Shown here: piece by piece, positions 4,988 to 61,105 of the stretch
Layout: every line of letters begins with the position of its first letter
Numbering within the stretch: position 1 is the first letter of the stretch
Assembly (NCBI GenBank): GCA_018060885.1
Contig: JAGOVF010000001.1
Location: 2,481-66,480 of the forward strand
DNA: 64,000 bases
Origin: Oligoflexales bacterium
GTDB taxonomy: Bacteria > Bdellovibrionota_B > Oligoflexia > Oligoflexales > JAGOVF01
Direction of reading: 5' to 3'
Notes under the pieces: generated by a model
What the model was told of the DNA's origin: nothing
Databases searched by the model: none
The model's input: the letters and a program-made list of their open reading frames with translations, nothing else
Made by a program: the position numbers and the translations under genes

Positions 4988-5076
4988 TTCGGAGCTTCGG
5001 GAAATAACTTTAGCGAAATGGCAATAAATTATTTTTTTAGCTATTTTTTTCGAATGCTATTTACTGTTCGTTTATG

Positions 5077-5117
5077 CCGAGCCTAGCCACGCTTTCTAAA
5101 GTAACTCTCAGAGAAGC
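5077..5117 (+). repeat. Motif D, copy 1 (41 nt; 36/41 identical to 23284-23324)
   Basis: ccgagcctagccacgctttctaaagtaactctcagagaagc versus ccaagcctcgccatgctttctaaagtaactctcagaaaaac. Each copy is followed by a small hairpin. Confidence 0.7.
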
Positions 5118-5283
5118 TGTTTGTATCACACAGCTTTAGATATACGAATCACGTTTAACACAGTCATTCTTGTTAGAACATTTAGTATGGAAGAGTGCAG
5201 CACGGAGAATCTGGTGCTAAGGAGTAAGTTAAAAAACAAAGCAGAACGTGTTGCGAATATTATGCACCCAGAACTGAAGCTTA

Positions 5284-5429
5284 CTTATGTAATAAGACCT
5301 GACTTGTCTTAGCCGCCAGAGGAACTGGTGAGGGCAGGACGCCCGAACCGGTAGCGATAATTTTGCCATGGATGGCATAAAAATTGAGCGGTCCTCTGGC
5401 GGCTAAGACAAGTCAGGCTTATTACATAA
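5284..5429 (+). repeat. Family A structured repeat, copy A1 (84-nt conserved core 5316-5399 on a 30-bp copy-specific stem)
   Basis: The core is CCAGAGGAACTGGTGAGGGCAGGACGCCCGAACCGGTAGCGATAATTTTGCCATGGATGGCATAAAAATTGAGCGGTCCTCTGG. Arm 5285-5315 pairs with 5400-5429, with one bulged A at 5297. The element lies 56 nt downstream of the stop of the minus-strand gene 5485..6873. Confidence 0.85.
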
Positions 5430-5484
5430 ATGAAAATCGATTAAATATGTGAACTACCCAGAAATTAATTTATTGATTTTTAAT

Positions 5485-6873
5485 TTAGCTAAAAATCGTC
5501 TCTTCGAGGCCAAAATCATCGAAGCCTTCAAGATTATTTTTATTTCCCGCAGATTGGGATTGAGAGTCTTCAGAAAAATCATCTTCAAAAGGTGATGGTA
5601 TAGTTTGGCCACTCGGTGTTCCGGCAATACGTTCTTCTACACCTTCAATCGTGTAAGTCATATCGCCTTGTTTTTTGCGTGAGTCATCCGAAACGATCGT
5701 ATAACCACTTCGTTTGATAATGCGATCCATCTGATCTAAATTGGCTTGCGCCACACTATAGTCTGGATCGCTGCGACAGGCACTTTCAAAACAAATCTTT
5801 GCATTCTGCGGATCTTTTTGTCGGCGATAACCGACACCCATATTAAAAAAGAGCTTAGCTTGGGTGCGTGGGCTTTTATCGCCAACAGCGTTGATGGCAG
5901 CATCATAAAGTTTCATACCGGCATCGAAATTTCCACGTCGAATTAGCATCACTGCGGAAGAATTAAACATCGCCGCAAGCTCGACTGGAGAAACTGAACC
6001 TTGCACGATTTCTAAGGCTTCGTTAATCTCGCCATCCATCAGCCGAACTTTACCTTTGCCTTGTAAAGCCTCTTTGTTATTAGAGTCTAGAGCCAATGCA
6101 TTATCAAAAGCTTCAGCGGCCTTTTCATTTTTGCCTACATTGAGCAAAACTTCCCCAAGGCCAACGAGCTTTTCTGGATCAAATGGATTAAGCAAAGTGA
6201 TTTTTGAGTAAATTGCCTCAGCTTCCTTATAAATACCAACTTTCATGAGAGATCTAGCATAAATGTGCAGATATTTAATATTTGGCGGATTCATTTCTGG
6301 AAGCGGCGTTAAGATTTTTAAAGCTTCTTTTGCCAAACCATCTTGGAAATAGGACTCTGCAAGCTCAGCTCTTAAATAAAGGCTGTCTGGATTTTTATCA
6401 CAGAGATCTGTCAAGATGCGTTTCATCCCGGTAAAATCTTGCGCAATCCGTGCTCGCTGCACCCGTGTCAAATCATCCTTAAAAGCAGACCGCGCAGTGC
6501 CTCGACGAATGGTGTGACCTAAATTTGAAGCCAGTTCTTTTGCTTCATAAGCACCAATATGTATTTGTGTTACACCAAATTCCAGCGCAACAGAAATTAA
6601 ACTATCACTCATTTGTAAACTTGCTAATAAAATGGGTCGAGATGCTAAGCCACCTAAAAATACACATTTTTTCAGAATGCGAACACAAGCCGCCTCGTCA
6701 CCGTTCCAATCCAAAACAAAAAGACCGGTAGGAAAACGTTCAACACTATAAAGGGCATCATTAACAGAGCTTTGCTCGACAATGTTACTAATGGCTTTAA
6801 GCTGCAGCTGATTGCGCACAACTTCAGCAAACTGCTTGTCGCTACTAAAAATTATTGCGTCTACTACTGCCAT
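5485..6873 (-). CDS. TPR-repeat protein with an N-terminal CheY-like (possibly pseudo-) receiver domain
   Basis: The N-terminal ~120 aa look receiver-like (..GLFVLDWNGDE..) but lack the usual N-terminal acidic pair. The middle has multiple TPR-like AxxxYxxAL repeats. The tail is acidic. Confidence 0.65.
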   Translation of the reverse strand: MAVVDAIIFSSDKQFAEVVRNQLQLKAISNIVEQSSVNDALYSVERFPTGLFVLDWNGDEAACVRILKKCVFLGGLASRPILLASLQMSDSLISVALEFGVTQIHIGAYEAKELASNLGHTIRRGTARSAFKDDLTRVQRARIAQDFTGMKRILTDLCDKNPDSLYLRAELAESYFQDGLAKEALKILTPLPEMNPPNIKYLHIYARSLMKVGIYKEAEAIYSKITLLNPFDPEKLVGLGEVLLNVGKNEKAAEAFDNALALDSNNKEALQGKGKVRLMDGEINEALEIVQGSVSPVELAAMFNSSAVMLIRRGNFDAGMKLYDAAINAVGDKSPRTQAKLFFNMGVGYRRQKDPQNAKICFESACRSDPDYSVAQANLDQMDRIIKRSGYTIVSDDSRKKQGDMTYTIEGVEERIAGTPSGQTIPSPFEDDFSEDSQSQSAGNKNNLEGFDDFGLEETIFS

Positions 6874-22347: not shown

Positions 22348-23126
22348 TCAAAGTGATGAATAAATTCGATCTTTGTTTTGGAACGAGCAAAATCCTTTCG
22401 CAAATCGAACTAGAATTGGCCGAGGGATCATTGACAGCCCTTATAGGCAAAAATGGCTCCGGAAAAACTAGTCTTTTAAAATGCTTAACGGGGTTTTATC
22501 CTTATCTTAATGCATCAATTCTTGTTGGCCCTGAACTAAAACCTCTTTCAGAATTCGACCCAACTCAGCGCGCCAAAACCATTGCGTGGTTGGCAACCAA
22601 TCAGCAGCTCGCTTTTGACTTTACCGTCGAGGAAATTGTCGCTATGGGACGCTACCCATGGTCAAAAGGCTATTTATCTCATCATGATAAGCAGTTGATT
22701 GAAAACTCTCTACAACAATTGGATCTGCAGAAATTACGCCGAAAAAGAATTTTTAGTCTCAGTTCTGGAGAGCAGCAGCGAGTTTATATTGCAAGAATTT
22801 TTGCTCAGGACACGCCGATTATTTTTTTAGACGAGCCCTTTGCAAATTTAGACCTTTGCTACAGCTTGGAGTTTTTTGACTTATTAAACGCGCTTAAAGA
22901 CAAAGGGAAAACAATAGTTCTTAGTATCCACGACTTGCATTTTGTTCAGCAAAATTTCAAAAAAGCTCTTGTGATGCAACAAGGCAAGGTCCTCATCCAC
23001 GATGATATTGAGCAATGCTTTCGCAATGAAGTGTTAAACAAAGCATTTGAACTATATGCCTCGCCTAGCTCGCCAGTCCAAGCACTGTCTTTACAACGAG
23101 TTCATCCACGTGATGTATCCACGTGA
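22344..23126 (+). CDS. ABC importer ATP-binding protein (BtuD/FecE/HmuV-like)
   Basis: Walker A GKNGSGKTS, signature LSSGEQQR, Walker B IFLDEPFANLD. Confidence 0.9.
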   Translation: MIKVMNKFDLCFGTSKILSQIELELAEGSLTALIGKNGSGKTSLLKCLTGFYPYLNASILVGPELKPLSEFDPTQRAKTIAWLATNQQLAFDFTVEEIVAMGRYPWSKGYLSHHDKQLIENSLQQLDLQKLRRKRIFSLSSGEQQRVYIARIFAQDTPIIFLDEPFANLDLCYSLEFFDLLNALKDKGKTIVLSIHDLHFVQQNFKKALVMQQGKVLIHDDIEQCFRNEVLNKAFELYASPSSPVQALSLQRVHPRDVST

Positions 23127-23151
23127 TGCACACTTTTTTGAGCGACTTTCA

Positions 23152-23308
23152 TTTAGAAAGCATTTCGAGGCTTGGATGAACGAGCTGCCAGAGGACCGCT
23201 CAATTTTTATGCCATCCATGGCAAAATTATCGCTACCGGTTCGGGCATCCCGCCCTCACCAGTTCCTCTGGCAGCTCGTTCATCCAAGCCTCGCCATGCT
23301 TTCTAAAG
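23152..23308 (-). repeat. Family A structured repeat, copy A2 (core 23188-23271, inverted relative to A1/A3; 36-bp stem)
   Basis: The reverse complement of 23188-23271 is identical to the A3 core. Arm 23152-23187 pairs with 23272-23307, apart from a 2x2 mismatch at 23164-23165. The element starts 26 nt after the stop of the plus-strand gene 22344..23126. Confidence 0.85.
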
Positions 23309-23324
23309 TAACTCTCAGAAAAAC
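23284..23324 (+). repeat. Motif D, copy 2 (its first 24 nt form part of the right arm of A2)
   Basis: See 5077-5117. Homology to locus 1 extends leftwards through the whole A2 right arm (compare 5066-5101). Confidence 0.7.
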
Positions 23325-23493
23325 AGGCAGCACGCTGTTCCAAGCACATAATTAGCACAAAATCCTGCAACCTTGCAGATCATTTGGCATAGAAGTCTGC
23401 AGTTCGGCAAGATCTGCAGGTGTGAGTATGTTGAAAAACAAATGCCTTATTTGTGTATTGATCTGCGTATGCACCCTAAGCTGACAATCACTT

Positions 23494-23645
23494 GAGTCTA
23501 TAGCAAAGGCCTTGTATTGGCCGCCAGCCAGAGGAACTGGTGAGGGCGGGATGCCCGAACCGGTAGCGATAATTTTGCCATGGATGGCATAAAAATTGAG
23601 CGGTCCTCTGGCTGGCGGCCAATACAAGGCCTCTGCTATAGACTC
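23494..23645 (+). repeat. Family A structured repeat, copy A3 (core 23528-23611; 34-bp stem)
   Basis: The core is identical to rc(A2) and 82/84 identical to A1. Arm 23494-23527 pairs with 23612-23645, with one mismatch at 23506. The element lies 52 nt downstream of the stop of the minus-strand cyclase gene. Confidence 0.85.
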
Positions 23646-23696
23646 TATGAAATTCGTTTAAATGTGTGCATCACCAAGTTAAAAATACGCAAAAAA

Positions 23697-28392: not shown

Positions 28393-28517
28393 GGGATTGT
28401 CGTAAATCGACGATAACGGCGTTAGGACTCATTCGAAAATCCTCATGTACTTATGAAGTACACTGCGGTTTTCTCATTTCATCCTGCCTTGTTCTCCTCG
28501 ATTTTCAACAATCCCTT
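28391..28517 (+). repeat. Family B structured repeat, copy B1 (79-nt core 28419-28497 between a copy-specific outer stem)
   Basis: The core gcgttaggactcattcgaaaatcctcatgtacttatgaagtacactgcggttttctcatttcatcctgccttgttctcc is about 66/79 identical to 39824-39902. The outer stem aagggattgt (28391-28400) pairs with acaatccctt (28508-28517). The left arm overlaps the stop codon at 28390-28392. Confidence 0.8.
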
Positions 28518-39796: not shown

Positions 39797-39921
39797 GAGG
39801 CTGCAGGGGAATTAACGATTACTGCGTTAGACCTAACTCGAAAATCCTCATGTACCCAAAAGGTACACTGCGGTTTTCTCATTACGGTCTGCCTTGTTCT
39901 CCTTAATTCTTCTGCAGCCTC
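39797..39921 (+). repeat. Family B structured repeat, copy B2 (core 39824-39902; 19-bp copy-specific outer stem)
   Basis: The outer stem gaggctgcaggggaattaa (39797-39815) pairs with ttaattcttctgcagcctc (39903-39921). Two of these pairs are G:T only on the plus strand. See B1 for the core. Confidence 0.8.
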
Positions 39922-57572: not shown

Positions 57573-58118
57573 CTATCTCTTTACATTTCCCGCAACAGGA
57601 ACTTTCGTTTTAGCGGCTTCTTTAACTTTTTCCATCGCTTGTTTGACTTCTTCAACCTGCGCTGAGCCAGACGCAGCTTCGCGTTTTTTCACTTCTTCCA
57701 TGATATTATGGCGGGTCGTGTACTCAACAGCTGACAAGATAATCTGTTTGCCTTTGCGATTTTTTAAATTAAAAATCAATGGTGCCTTTAGATTTGCAGT
57801 CATGTTTTGTGGATTAGTCGGCATTGTGATTATAACTGAAATAACCGCATCTTCTTCCGTTTGAATTTCAAGGTCTGCGACCTCTTCTTCATTTACTTCT
57901 ACTGCGTAGTCTGGCTTAAATAATAAGGGGTTTATCAGTACAAAAGCTATGGCGCCATCATCTAAAGACTGTAACCATTTAAAAGGAGACTCTTTGTCAT
58001 GATCAAGCAAGACATACTTTCTCAGTTCTGGAAAGCCGATCAATCCAGAAGGAAGTAAAATAAGGTCTTTCTCTTGAACCTCAATTTCGCCGAATCGAGA
58101 TGTTGCAACTTTCAGCAA
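57573..58118 (-). CDS. fliW: Flagellar assembly factor FliW (CsrA antagonist) with C-terminal extension
   Basis: ..SRFGEIEVQEKDLILLPSGLIGFPELRKYVLL...PFKWLQSLDD..AFVLINP... I place the start at TTG 58116-58118 (GGAG 6 nt upstream), which gives MLKVATSRFGEI. The track's GTG start is at 58145. Confidence 0.85.
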   Translation of the reverse strand: MLKVATSRFGEIEVQEKDLILLPSGLIGFPELRKYVLLDHDKESPFKWLQSLDDGAIAFVLINPLLFKPDYAVEVNEEEVADLEIQTEEDAVISVIITMPTNPQNMTANLKAPLIFNLKNRKGKQIILSAVEYTTRHNIMEEVKKREAASGSAQVEEVKQAMEKVKEAAKTKVPVAGNVKR

Positions 58119-58287
58119 AAGACTCTCCTCTTCACAAAAACTCACTTAAAGAACTTACAGCGCACACTAAAACTTATGCCTGTTTAGGCATTACTCTCTG
58201 TTGCCGTACACTCTGTTGCCACTTTTCCCGTTGCCGTTTTGCGACTTCAGGACTTATCTTGATACAATTTACTGGTGATCTCATGCT

Positions 58288-58316
58288 ATTCTAAATAATA
58301 TTTTTTGATAAATCAA
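58288..58316 (-). promoter_or_regulatory. Sigma70-like promoter in the csrA-fliW spacer
   Basis: The minus strand reads TTGATT, a 17-nt spacer, then TAGAAT. It is followed by a leader of about 160 nt before the fliW start. Confidence 0.45.
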
Positions 58317-58339
58317 CATCTAGCTTCTAAGTTCCAAAA

Positions 58340-58624
58340 TCAGGTCTGCTTTTTTGGTTTTTTGATTACAAAAGTACCGGATTTGCCTTCTGAACGCAGA
58401 CCGCCGGCGTCGACATTTAATTTACTAAGATCAGCAGGATCCGTCATCGATGCCGCCTTATTCTCTTCATGGATACGTTGGAAAATTTCTTCTCGATGTA
58501 CAACAGTGTTTGGGCTCGCTTTTATCCCTAACCTAACTTGCTTGCCCTTGATTTGCATGACGATTACCTTAATTTCATCGCCAATTGAAATCGCCTCTCC
58601 TATTTTCCGTGTCAATACTAGCAA
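58340..58624 (-). CDS. csrA: Carbon storage regulator CsrA (flagellar-type) with C-terminal extension
   Basis: MLVLTRKIGEAISIGDEIKVIVMQIKGKQVRLGIKASPNTVVHREEIF. TTG start preceded by AGGAGG at 6 nt. 94 aa. Confidence 0.9.
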   Translation of the reverse strand: MLVLTRKIGEAISIGDEIKVIVMQIKGKQVRLGIKASPNTVVHREEIFQRIHEENKAASMTDPADLSKLNVDAGGLRSEGKSGTFVIKKPKKQT

Positions 58625-58715
58625 GCGAACCCTCCTTGGTCTGCCAGAATTCCGAGATAGCTACTCTAAAAGCAAGCCGCCTAAAAAAATTACTTCAAAT
58701 TTAAAAGTTACCTTG

Positions 58716-58744
58716 ATTCTAGACGATTTTTTCCAACAGGTAAA
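58716..58744 (-). promoter_or_regulatory. Sigma70-like promoter candidate upstream of csrA
   Basis: The minus strand reads TTTACC, a 17-nt spacer, then TAGAAT, within the 138-nt flgL-csrA gap. Confidence 0.35.
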
Positions 58745-58762
58745 CCCTCATATCAATAACAA

Positions 58763-59662
58763 TTACTGCATAAAATTTAACAAGGAAGGTTGCAAAAGTT
58801 TATTTGAAGTTAATAAAGTACTTTGCAAAACACTTTCCGACTTTTTAAAATCTGAACTACTGCGGTAGATATCTGCATCTTCGATCGTCGAACGCATTTT
58901 TTCCGTTTGTTCTTCCTCAAAAAGTAGCCTTTCGGACGCTTTTTGCAAACTACTATGCATAGCGCCAATCGTCGCTTGCGTTGAAGTGACCTTCTCTAAA
59001 TGAAAGTCCATCTCATCTATAGAATTGTGAATGGTTTCTTTATCATTAGCTTCCAAGCCGTCACGCAACACTCTTAAGCTCTCTAAAAGATTCATATGCC
59101 CGCTTGCACGCTCGTCGGCATTTGGTTCAAACAATAAACGCCCTGGAATATTAACCTGCCTAAAATCATTGCGTCCAATCGGCAGAAAAATCTGCCCATC
59201 ATCGCCAACAAACTCGCCTTCACTTGCAAAAGCCGGGGTTCGCGTGCGAAATCCAGAAAAGAGATACCTATTATTAAACGAAGCATTCCCGAGGCTCATA
59301 ATCTCATTCATTATTTCGTCTATTTCTTTTGAAACTGCATCACGGCTGCCTTGCGCATAAGTATCGTTTGCCATTCCGATCGCAAGCTCCTTAGCGCGTA
59401 TGAGCTTATCTGAAAGCGTAGTCACAGCCGCCTCTGTATTCTCCAGATAGCCTTTACCAAAATCAATATTGCGCTGAAACTGGCGCTTATTCGAAGAATC
59501 GTTTTTTAGGCTTATCACAGTACTAAAGCCTAAGGGGTCATCTTCAAGGGCATTAATTCTTTTTTGGGTGCTGATTTGACCCAATAGTTTTTCATTTTGA
59601 GTCTTTGCATTATTGACTCTATCAGCAACTACGTCATATCTTTTACTATCGGAAACTCGCAT
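58763..59662 (-). CDS. flgL: Flagellar hook-associated protein 3
   Basis: Flagellin-like N-terminus MRVSDSKRYDVVADRVNNAKTQ...INALEDDPLG and C-terminus. Located downstream of flgK. Confidence 0.85.
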   Translation of the reverse strand: MRVSDSKRYDVVADRVNNAKTQNEKLLGQISTQKRINALEDDPLGFSTVISLKNDSSNKRQFQRNIDFGKGYLENTEAAVTTLSDKLIRAKELAIGMANDTYAQGSRDAVSKEIDEIMNEIMSLGNASFNNRYLFSGFRTRTPAFASEGEFVGDDGQIFLPIGRNDFRQVNIPGRLLFEPNADERASGHMNLLESLRVLRDGLEANDKETIHNSIDEMDFHLEKVTSTQATIGAMHSSLQKASERLLFEEEQTEKMRSTIEDADIYRSSSDFKKSESVLQSTLLTSNKLLQPSLLNFMQ

Positions 59663-59680
59663 AACATAAGCCTATTTAAA

Positions 59681-61105
59681 CTAGCGTTTTAGACTCAATA
59701 CAGTTTCTAACATTTCGTCTACTGTCGTAATGAGCTTCGACGACGCTGCAAAACTAGATTGCCATTTCATTAAGTCCATCGCCTCTTCATCGAGTGACAC
59801 ACCCGAGACTGCGTCTTTGCGTGACTTAATATCAGACAGCATTATATCGTTTGCGTCTTTTAAATTACTTGTTCTAACAACTTCCAAGCCTACTTCACCA
59901 ACTATTCCAGCATAATATTCCGTTAAGTTCGCATTTCCGCCTGAAAGAATTTTGCGATCTTTCAGTCCCACGAGCTCATTTAAATTAACATTATCTCCTG
60001 GAGCATTCACCGAAACAGCCGCGGCGATGGCATCCGTACTCATACTGATCTCATCACTCAAGCTTAGTCTTTTTGCAGCTCCAGGCTCGCTTCCAACTTC
60101 ATTGAAAAAATTAACCCCATTTATCTCTTTAAAATCATTTAGTCCAAAACCCTCACGGTGAATCTTATTGAACTCACCAACGAAAGTTGTGACCATTTCA
60201 TCGTTTTTTACTCGCAATTGAGGAATAAACTGATCACGCAAATCGAGCAAACCACGTAATTGTCCCGATCCGACTTTATCTGTAATAGCACGCTTGTAGC
60301 CATTTTGATCAACAACAACCAGATCCACCAAGGCTTGATTTTCGGCCTTTGATTCTGTGGTCAGCTCTACATGATGGGCACCTTCTACAAACAACATATC
60401 GCCGACACCACGCACTGTCATCATGCCGCGTTCGTCTTCGTAGTAATTGACATCCATTATATTAGCGAGTTTGTTGACAATAGTGTCACGCTGGTCGCGC
60501 AAATCATTGGCTTCACTTTTGCGTCCGGCTTCTGCTACTTGAATCTTTACATTGAGCCCCGCAATATCCTTTACAAGGTCAGATGCTTCCGTTGCTAGAT
60601 GATTAACCGATTGATTGAGTTGCATTTGATTAGAATCTAAGTCAGCATCGATTTTCCGAAATCCATTTATTAAATCTATTGCATTCTCTCGTACAGAAGT
60701 TCTTGCTGTCACGTCATCGGGAAAAGAAGATAAATCTTGCAGAGAGTTGAAAAACTTTGTCATTTCATCAGATAGATTGGCCGTTAATTCTGGCGAAAAA
60801 ATTTGTGAGATGTTTTTAATACCTTCGAATTTTTTTTCGCTCGCCCCAGCTTCCTGCTGCGACTGATTGTATTGCTTTTCGACAAATTTATCATGAACGC
60901 GGTTAATCGAACCGACGTAGACGCCGTTTCCGATCAATATTCCACCGCGAACATCTGTCGGATCTCTTTGCGCAACGTTGACGCGCTGGCGCGAATAGCC
61001 CTCTGTGTGGGCATTGGCGATATTGTGTCCGCTCGTGTCAACCCCTTGGCGAGACGTGTATAACGACTCGGCTCCTATCCCTAGAGTATGGAATAGACCT
61101 GACAT
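59681..61105 (-). CDS. flgK: Flagellar hook-associated protein 1
   Basis: N-terminus MSGLFHTLGIGAESLYTSRQGVDTSGHNIANAHTEGYSRQ and C-terminus ..VSLDEEAMDLMKWQSSFAASSKLITTVDEML. Confidence 0.9.
   Translation of the reverse strand: MSGLFHTLGIGAESLYTSRQGVDTSGHNIANAHTEGYSRQRVNVAQRDPTDVRGGILIGNGVYVGSINRVHDKFVEKQYNQSQQEAGASEKKFEGIKNISQIFSPELTANLSDEMTKFFNSLQDLSSFPDDVTARTSVRENAIDLINGFRKIDADLDSNQMQLNQSVNHLATEASDLVKDIAGLNVKIQVAEAGRKSEANDLRDQRDTIVNKLANIMDVNYYEDERGMMTVRGVGDMLFVEGAHHVELTTESKAENQALVDLVVVDQNGYKRAITDKVGSGQLRGLLDLRDQFIPQLRVKNDEMVTTFVGEFNKIHREGFGLNDFKEINGVNFFNEVGSEPGAAKRLSLSDEISMSTDAIAAAVSVNAPGDNVNLNELVGLKDRKILSGGNANLTEYYAGIVGEVGLEVVRTSNLKDANDIMLSDIKSRKDAVSGVSLDEEAMDLMKWQSSFAASSKLITTVDEMLETVLSLKR

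Follow-up and report, generated by a model that had tools for sequence, protein, structure and literature searches.

A diverged TwoAYGGAY motif within dispersed hairpin repeats of an Oligoflexales bacterium

Introduction

What kind of element keeps a core of 84 nucleotides (nt) almost unchanged at two places in a genome, while the sequence around it is far less conserved? The question is raised by a composite repeat at positions 5077-5429 of a 64,000-nt stretch of DNA from an Oligoflexales bacterium (contig JAGOVF010000001.1, positions 2,481 to 66,480), which was analysed as a whole and is termed here the window. The composite occurs at locus 1 (5068-5461) and again at locus 2 (23123-23674), and the original prediction read it as a motif D, a hairpin-rich spacer and a forward copy of a "family A" element. 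The analysis described here provides good support for family A being a diverged member of TwoAYGGAY (RF01731), carried on a dispersed hairpin repeat in this Oligoflexales genome. The centrepiece of the finding is a published motif that had not been recognised in the original prediction. Both its identity and its architecture, namely TwoAYGGAY hairpin units that typically stand head to head, are highly probable. The window derives from a contig of 67,318 nt that belongs to an Oligoflexales metagenome-assembled genome (MAG; P0001, 100% identical).

Identity of the repeated core

In a scan of the window at the Rfam gathering thresholds, TwoAYGGAY at 5286-5428 is the sole match, with a score of 43.3 bits and a gathering threshold for RF01731 of 43 bits. 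All alignments to RF01731 run over the full length of the model (positions 1-168), and the window copies lie on the strand that places GGA in loops. According to the cmscan alignment and to minimum-free-energy folds, the core follows the order P1, hairpin 1, AG, hairpin 2, CGG, P1, which amounts to a three-way layout. The core is asymmetric and harbours two hairpins with GGA loops, GGGC-RGGAY-GCCC and GCC-AUGGAU-GGC. Hairpin 1 occurs either as GGGC-AGGAC-GCCC (locus 1) or as GGGC-GGGAU-GCCC, in the fold with a GA/GA internal loop below it, and the AUGGAU loop of hairpin 2 fits the eponymous AYGGAY. The arms of the closing helix P1 comprise 26-44 nt and are 95-100% complementary in each copy, and in the wider family described below 14 of 16 P1 pairs covary.

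A covariance model termed R1, built from 18 gamma-proteobacterial copies only, was run without filters over all 64 kb. Its top three hits are the three window copies, namely the forward unit of locus 2 (A1, 27.0 bits), the unit of locus 1 (24.8 bits) and the reverse unit of locus 2 (A2, 23.0 bits), each with the sense strand scoring best. Up to an E-value of 1, R1 retrieved nothing else from the whole window besides the antisense strands of these three copies.

Two observations tell against the assignment. The remaining window copies score just below the threshold of 43 bits (42.2 bits for 23491-23648, and 39.0 bits for 23160-23298 on the minus strand), and the RGGAY loop of hairpin 1 (AGGAC or GGGAU) is one base shorter than AYGGAY. 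The same RGGAY loop is found in Pseudomonas copies, which score 46-62 bits in Rfam.

The window copies share with TwoAYGGAY a three-way junction closed by a very long P1 of variable sequence, two GGA-loop hairpins, the second of which is exactly GCC-AUGGAU-GGC, the AG linker and a CGG 3' of hairpin 2. In 2010, P1 was described as "often very large" and variable, the hosts as Clostridia, gamma-proteobacteria and the human gut, and the motif was neither reported to form head-to-head pairs nor flagged as repetitive or transposon-linked (Weinberg et al. 2010, PMC2864571). The present copies differ from the published motif in their Oligoflexales host, in scores that lie at the threshold with a hairpin 1 loop of the Pseudomonas type, in the GA/GA internal loop of hairpin 1 (a similar GA/GA at the base of hairpin 2 is seen by sequence reading only) and in a pairing that extends into leader and trailer.

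Other Rfam candidates were rejected. AaHKsRNA41 (Aggregatibacter sRNA 41, a small RNA) reached 28 bits versus a gathering score of 97; its match at 23164-23343 on the plus strand spans the antisense of the reverse unit, motif D and the next small hairpin and is probably a generic long-hairpin resemblance. The matches to mir-1788 and MIR1858 are long-hairpin artefacts, and SAM-II scored 18 bits.

Architecture of the two loci

The repeated entity is a hairpin unit of approximately 200-220 nt, which consists of a leader, a P1 arm, the core, a second P1 arm and a trailer, and usually occurs in head-to-head pairs. Locus 2 is a complete pair of this kind, formed by the reverse unit A2 and the forward unit A1. 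In a self-alignment of 581 nt that spans 23123-23674, about 70% of the locus agrees with its reverse complement, and the locus therefore comprises two units head to head. The core of A2 at 23188-23271, a third core in reverse orientation with two mismatches on the minus strand, was absent from the original prediction. The cores of A1 and A2 are 100% complementary over 86 nt with 254 nt between them (inverted repeat I2), and both share the same two variants relative to the core of locus 1.

Locus 1 is the same composite with a reverse unit that is truncated at the core/arm border and lacks the core, the other arm and the trailer. Its status as a truncated pair follows from the homology to the locus 2 composite, which begins only at 5068; this position corresponds to 23276 in locus 2, just beyond the A2 core. 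The trailer of locus 1 (5429-5461) matches the left end of locus 2 as reverse complement.

This layout replaces the parsing into motif D, spacer and family A. Motif D does not stand on its own; it shows, in antisense, the leader and the 5' arm of a reverse family A unit. Of motif D, the first half corresponds to the outer end of the A2 arm (inverted repeat I3, where 23152-23195 pairs with 23264-23307), and its second half is the A2 leader in antisense view. Pairing runs past the arms: in the fold, the A1 leader ATGCACCC..CTGA..TTACTT pairs with the trailer ATGAAA.TCG.TTAAA..TGTGCAT, and the A2 leader pairs with the trailer CUCAAAAAA, which yields hairpins of about 200-220 nt. Folded with its flanks, the A1 unit of locus 2 attains -129.8 kcal/mol (z = -12.5). 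The features of the two loci are as follows.

Locus 1
5068-5115, minus strand: remnant of the reverse (A2-type) unit, consisting of 5' P1 arm and leader and containing motif D (5077-5115); 76% identical to its locus 2 counterpart
5116-5261, no strand: diverged spacer with the short hairpins AGCTGT/ACAGCT and AGCAC/GTGCT; from the alignment to the locus 2 spacer, hairpins by reading
5262-5285, plus strand: leader of the forward (A1-type) unit, ATGCACCC..CTGA..TTACTT; conserved in a three-way alignment, pairs partly with the trailer in the fold
5286-5428, plus strand: forward unit with P1 arms 5286-5315 and 5400-5428 and the 84-nt core 5316-5399; from Rfam TwoAYGGAY, inverted repeat I6 and model R1
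5429-5461, plus strand: A1-type trailer, ATGAAAATCGATTAAATATGTG...; 68% identity with its counterpart at locus 2

Locus 2
23123-23151, minus strand: A2 trailer; inverted repeat of 23646-23674
23152-23307, minus strand: reverse (A2) unit with P1 arms 23152-23187 and 23272-23307 and core 23188-23271; from the core match, I3, Rfam and R1
23284-23322, minus strand: motif D, that is the outer A2 5' arm and the A2 leader (UUUUCUGAGAGUUAC on the minus strand); from I3 and the fold
23323-23468, no strand: spacer between the units with the hairpins AACAG/CTGTT (23323-23345) and CTGCAG/CTGCAG (23397-23419) and the palindrome CTGCAA/TTGCAG (23364-23379)
23469-23493, plus strand: leader of the forward (A1) unit; from the three-way alignment and the fold
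23494-23645, plus strand: forward (A1) unit with P1 arms 23494-23527 and 23612-23645 and core 23528-23611; from I2, inverted repeat I4, Rfam, R1 and the fold
23646-23674, plus strand: A1 trailer, TATGAAATTCGTTTAAATGTGTGCATCAC; from the alignment and the fold

The CTGCAG/CTGCAG hairpin of the locus 2 spacer lies about 10 nt off the midpoint of 23123-23674. Locus 2 is flanked by genes for an ABC ATPase and a CHASE2 adenylate cyclase, which converge on the element, and the ABC ATPase stop codon (end of the open reading frame, ORF, at 23126) marks the start of the A2 trailer.

Uneven conservation and its likely cause

The proposal that the composite is present at two loci with very uneven conservation is borne out by blockwise global alignment, in which identity amounts to 98% for the core, 90% for motif D, 68% for the trailer, 55% for the spacer and 45-47% for the arms. 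As had been stated, 82 of the 84 core positions agree (5316-5399 versus 23528-23611). Motif D is identical at 35 of 39 positions (5077-5115 versus 23284-23322), where shuffled sequences are expected to yield no match. The predicted near-constant distance between motif D and the forward family A copy was likewise recovered (168 and 171 nt at loci 1 and 2, respectively). The spacers, described beforehand as alignable yet strongly diverged, share 105 of 192 alignment columns (55%) with 45 gap columns, and their similarity, on which the prediction had made itself depend, is significant (z = 11.9 versus shuffles, with a score of 52 and a best shuffle of 22).

The long arms stay complementary within each copy, as had been claimed (26/26 in I6, 98% over 42 nt in I4 and 95% over 44 nt in I3), although they are only 45-47% identical between the loci. 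Homologous spacer positions carry hairpins with different stems, which reading of the sequences corroborates for AGCTGT/ACAGCT versus AACAG/CTGTT and for AGCAC/GTGCT versus CTGCAG/CTGCAG. A third copy, on the metagenomic contig L002, harbours GAACAA/TTGTTC and TTCTG/CAGAA at the same places of the spacer. No consensus fold for the three spacers was supported by RNAalifold (-4.84 kcal/mol, with a covariation term of +0.23). The notion that the spacer is non-coding was upheld.

The original prediction had attributed this pattern to constraint or concerted evolution acting on the core and on the pairing, rather than to recent copy-paste of the whole unit. This interpretation stands, and the same pattern recurs in Pseudomonas. 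The apical core alone is under sequence constraint, the stems are held to their pairing only (by compensatory change or palindrome correction), and the sequence between the units drifts. The uneven conservation is a result of this difference.

A coding core was rejected, as each of the two core substitutions alters the encoded residue in the frame that is annotated. By translation, at least two frames of the reverse strand are open across the core, and by reading all three are. ORFs of 57-102 amino acids cross the repeat cores (23352-23627 on the minus strand and 23047-23355 on the plus strand; proteins P0121-P0124), and four such ORFs are annotated as hypothetical proteins of the MAG (KBD78_00115, KBD78_06430, KBD78_15985 and one unnamed). 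The ORFs P0121-P0124 look spurious, because the core substitutions are non-synonymous and the reverse strand is open in at least two frames. Annotation pipelines now appear to call spurious proteins across the repeat.

Further copies in the MAG and in metagenomes

An exact 27-mer of the core yielded no match in species-representative genomes and a single contig, L002, in metagenomes. On the minus strand, L002 carries a complete A2-type unit with the arm ends TTTAGAAAGCGT and ACGCTTTCTAAA, followed by a diverged spacer, a ATGCACCC..CTG leader and a truncated A1-type unit that stops 22 nt into the core. The TwoAYGGAY score of L002 is 37.2 bits (threshold 43).

A protein search with translations of the reverse-strand core identified four hypothetical proteins of the same MAG, one of which is the window's own ORF. 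In P0121 and P0122 the core passes into the arm and then into MLSKVTLRK or SRFLKYV, which represent motif D in two frames, and D is contiguous with a reverse-type core. In the third MAG protein of the set P0121-P0123, the core reads into an A1-type spacer; the copies behind P0121-P0123 are known from translations alone. Together these matches reveal at least three further copies on other contigs of the MAG, and at least six core-bearing copies in the MAG.

Linkage of D and A in further copies, another point raised by the original prediction, was found in 3 of 3 cases where the DNA is at hand (locus 1, locus 2 and L002). Among the copies found, D is always attached to a reverse-type unit. The segment CGCTTTCTAAAGTA is seemingly invariant in five instances of D, three of them read as DNA and two (P0121 and P0122) consistent by translation.

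Another contig, L001 (a Logan contig from SRR11088468), ends at about 23195, inside the reverse copy and 69 nt past the stop codon of the ABC ATPase.

A wider family of divergent pairs

Species-representative genomes were scanned with a degenerate pattern that comprises only the two loop-closing stems at a spacing of 12-30 nt. The scan returned at least 117 loci, where about one is expected by chance according to our own estimate. Most matches stem from Pseudomonas (fluorescens and syringae groups), others from Xanthomonadales, Shewanella, Ferrimonas, a Lachnospiraceae MAG and Planctomycetota. The copies from Pseudomonas and Lachnospiraceae are recognised as TwoAYGGAY in Rfam with 46-127 bits, and several of the matches from other taxa, which remain below the Rfam threshold, may be other GGA-hairpin RNAs.

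Copies located less than 1.2 kb apart, whose cores are separated by 190-700 nt, are overwhelmingly divergent (33 of 38 neighbouring pairs; of the others, 3 are convergent and 2 in tandem). Divergent examples include L036 (1226-1748), L063 (710-1137) and L020 from the Lachnospiraceae MAG (5867-6032 on the minus and 6232-6396 on the plus strand), and this arrangement is that of locus 2 and L002. Single units are common in the wider family as well, and L081 and L109 contain arrays of three or four copies.

In Pseudomonas, nine loci, several of which lie in one genome, possess 100% identical 93-nt cores; the enclosing repeat of about 480 nt reaches just 83-91% identity, and their flanks are unrelated. 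Many Pseudomonas contigs break off within the element, and the whole of contig L012 (742 nt) is a single divergent pair. Among 91 distinct gamma-proteobacterial copies, 28 of 37 pairs covary, with changes in both partners; the share of paired cells is 96%, compared to 33-40% when the partner is slid. MAFFT and RNAalifold applied to 36 copies of mixed taxa recovered the two loop-closing stems only.

No protein family recurs within about 4 kb of the 117 loci (8-kb loci), besides the ORFs across the repeats, and the Pseudomonas copies show no preference for gene orientation or gene 3' ends. The window composite had no match in plasmid and phage collections, the Pseudomonas pair had two weak matches to plasmid records only, and the two-loop pattern was found in 5 of 2.9 million viral contigs. 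A search of the full-text literature for the loop sequences retrieved only unrelated primer sequences. The head-to-head doublet, the extension into leader and trailer and the dispersed repeat with an invariant core appear to be general for the family, and no published description of the head-to-head layout and dispersed-repeat behaviour was found.

Some features of individual copies deserve mention. Among the matches listed, the bases that flank the GGA of hairpin 1 (5335-5341, 23547-23553 and 23246-23252 in the window) are A..C, A..U or G..U and never G..C, although the pattern admitted all four combinations; a weak or wobble pair that closes the loop would agree with this. In eight Pseudomonas loci (L019, L025, L038, L043, L050, L074, L087 and L099), runs of CTTGAT/GATCAA-like hexamers occur just upstream of P1, and the trailer side abuts REP-like sequences or arrays, which makes the borders of the repeat hard to place. 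In L022, from a Planctomycetota MAG, a c-di-GMP-I-GGC riboswitch (67.8 bits) is present at 5423-5517, beside a pattern match that was not called TwoAYGGAY and is probably unrelated.

A decoy for CsrA?

A role of TwoAYGGAY as CsrA decoy was predicted in a publication of 2015, and Rfam groups the motif with the sRNAs that sequester Csr/Rsm proteins (clan CL00106). The window itself encodes a candidate partner together with the gene for its presumptive antagonist:

58340-58624, minus strand: csrA, the candidate partner; NCBIfam CsrA 88.2 bits (cut-off 73), tblastn
57573-58145, minus strand: fliW; NCBIfam FliW 147.8 bits (cut-off 130)

Both belong to a flgK-flgL-csrA-fliW cluster at 57573-61105 on the minus strand, in the same 64 kb as the three TwoAYGGAY-like copies, and we infer a link between csrA and the repeat.

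In the proposed mechanism, a unit would be transcribed such that the core reads AUGGAU and RGGAY, and its two GGA loops would clamp one dimer of the window-encoded CsrA and thereby act as a decoy. The two loops of a unit are about 33 nt apart, a spacing that is probably within reach of one CsrA dimer. The long duplex of P1, leader and trailer might stabilise the core or let it be excised from any transcript that crosses it, with a head-to-head pair, transcription from either side would yield one sense copy, and the copies may spread as a non-autonomous repeat or by recombination. A CsrA from Bdellovibrio represses, or recognises, a GGA-hairpin reporter. Moreover, the same GGA loop sequences occur in distant phyla (Oligoflexales, Pseudomonas, Xanthomonadales, Lachnospiraceae), and since they recur over such distances, a universally conserved binding protein fits better than a lineage-specific transposase.

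Several points weigh against a CsrA decoy. No published validation of the 2015 prediction was found, and a preprint of 2025 still calls TwoAYGGAY "relatively unexplored". Consensus scans, which may not suit Oligoflexales, detected no sigma-70-like promoter or intrinsic terminator that fits either unit, and -35/-10 boxes picked by eye in the spacer are inconsistent between copies. When both strands are folded, the sense strand contains 239 and the antisense strand 246 G.U pairs; this symmetry implies that the helices show neither which strand is functional nor whether RNA or DNA is the acting form. A comparison of G.U pairs with A.C mismatches (239 and 14, respectively) as a test for RNA and strand proved biased and was dropped after folding of both strands. 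CsrA proteins with a FliW partner are antagonised by FliW, and no sRNA decoy is known in such systems. Finally, almost perfect stems of 26-44 base pairs (bp), truncated copies at scattered sites and breaks of contigs would be just as typical of a selfish palindromic repeat. On balance, the TwoAYGGAY unit as an RNA decoy for CsrA with two GGA loops is a tentative assignment, with the chances somewhat on the side of doubt. The package of identity, architecture and mechanism is the best explanation overall, and we put its chances of being right as a whole at about even.

A further-reaching version would view TwoAYGGAY as a self-propagating, orientation-independent "portable CsrA decoy", in other words a non-autonomous foldback repeat that moves as a doublet with a two-GGA payload. 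This version is improbable. Were it true, CsrA availability would be tuned by the copy number of the repeat and by read-through instead of by dedicated sRNA genes, including in genomes with FliW-partnered CsrA and no known sRNA antagonist.

Alternative explanations

The alternative that survives best is a selfish, non-autonomous mobile DNA repeat of the REPIN doublet or foldback MITE (miniature inverted-repeat transposable element) type, which would act at the level of DNA. The core would be a hairpin recognised by a trans-acting transposase, the pair the mobile unit, and single or truncated copies decaying relics, and the core would be conserved by selection of master copies for their mobility, without a host function. 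Such an element would account for dispersed copies, which are found at two loci in the window, on at least three other contigs of the MAG, on one metagenome contig and in Pseudomonas, where identical cores stand in unrelated flanks. Truncation at locus 1 and in L002, assembly breaks within the element and a contig of 742 nt made up of a pair alone would also be expected, as would stems that are almost perfect, G.U use that is symmetric on both strands and the lack of a promoter or terminator in consensus scans. The excess of inverted doublets (33/38) points in the same direction, and a similar excess has reportedly been described for REPINs. However, no target-site duplication is evident at 23123/23674, where the ends are poorly defined with two or three copies; neither a transposase nor any other family recurs beside the element at 117 loci, and the element is almost absent from plasmid, phage and viral collections. 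In addition, identical loops across phyla would require one shared transposase system, and both the mismatch conserved in hairpin 2 and the internal GA/GA loops of the fold resemble RNA architecture more than a DNA palindrome; by eye, the GA/GA loops can be taken as tandem G.A pairs. A purely mobile repeat is unlikely on these grounds, although it is a serious contender.

A structured RNA with a partner other than CsrA could take two forms. In the first, the antisense strand would be functional, and its UCC loops (AUCCAU and GUCCU) would pair with Shine-Dalgarno-like GGA. Both strands fold almost equally well and use G.U pairs equally, but the sense fold is the more stable one in 86 of 112 copies and, by 5-12 kcal/mol, in the four Oligoflexales copies, and the GGA strand scores higher with Rfam and with R1. 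In the second form, the long duplex would serve as an RNase III or mRNA-stability element in the untranslated regions of neighbouring genes, similar to Correia or ERIC sequences. Locus 2 starts at a stop codon and is enclosed by two converging genes, so that read-through transcripts would contain the element, and the stems of 26-44 bp are within the size range of RNase III substrates, for which Correia elements offer a comparison. Yet the copies in Pseudomonas favour neither gene 3' ends nor any gene orientation, and a pure stability element would need no invariant asymmetric core. Either form of a non-CsrA RNA is rather improbable.

An invertible DNA switch, in which the 254-nt segment between the inverted cores flips and thereby changes the expression of neighbouring genes, is very improbable: the 86-nt perfect inverted repeat with 254 nt between its arms and the two variants shared by both locus 2 cores, which suggest exchange, would suit it, but there is no adjacent recombinase and no promoter-like site in the segment, the flanking genes converge on the element, single units are common, and the segment is quasi-palindromic, so that flipping would change little.

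Comparison with known systems

The tentative CsrA decoy can be compared with CsrB, CsrC and RsmX/Y/Z of clan CL00106. In common with these sRNAs, family A exposes GGA in loops, occurs in several copies per genome and resides in a host with csrA. CsrB and RsmZ carry many more GGA sites; in contrast, a family A unit has only two, which are enclosed in a stem of 26-44 bp. Family A further differs by the lack of a recognisable promoter, upstream activating site or terminator in consensus scans and by a host CsrA of the FliW-partnered type.

REPIN doublets are mobilised by RAYT transposases in Pseudomonas fluorescens, and their units comprise about 35 nt. They resemble family A in that conserved palindromic modules form mostly inverted doublets, with singlets presumed to be relics, and in that copies are intergenic, dispersed and numerous. 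The units of family A, however, are about 200-220 nt long, and each is a hairpin of its own with an asymmetric three-way core. The family A cores lie 190-700 nt apart, and neither a RAYT nor another enzyme is found nearby at 117 loci.

Correia elements of Neisseria and ERIC sequences of enterobacteria are likewise intergenic imperfect palindromes of 100-250 nt, which form long hairpins if transcribed and are commonly truncated. Their conserved part is the terminal inverted repeats, whereas family A has variable ends and an invariant apical core and revealed no target-site duplication.

Implications

The present results extend TwoAYGGAY to the Bdellovibrionota (Oligoflexales), well beyond its published range. 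An orphan motif since 2010, TwoAYGGAY is seen here as a dispersed hairpin repeat whose copies stand head to head far above chance. The motif is now placed in a genome with a FliW-partnered CsrA, and RNA antagonists of this CsrA type are not known. If the decoy mechanism is true, it is directly testable in culturable Pseudomonas that carry the same element. If the repeat is purely selfish, it represents a new large REPIN-like family.

Another repeat in the window

The window contains a second hairpin repeat family, the two copies of which (28405-28503 and 39810-39908) are 99 nt long and 81% identical. A search at the Rfam gathering threshold gave no match for this family. Each copy forms a single long, imperfect hairpin, whose apical stem shows compensatory change (GUACUU/AAGUAC versus GUACC/GGUAC), and the minus strand folds better.

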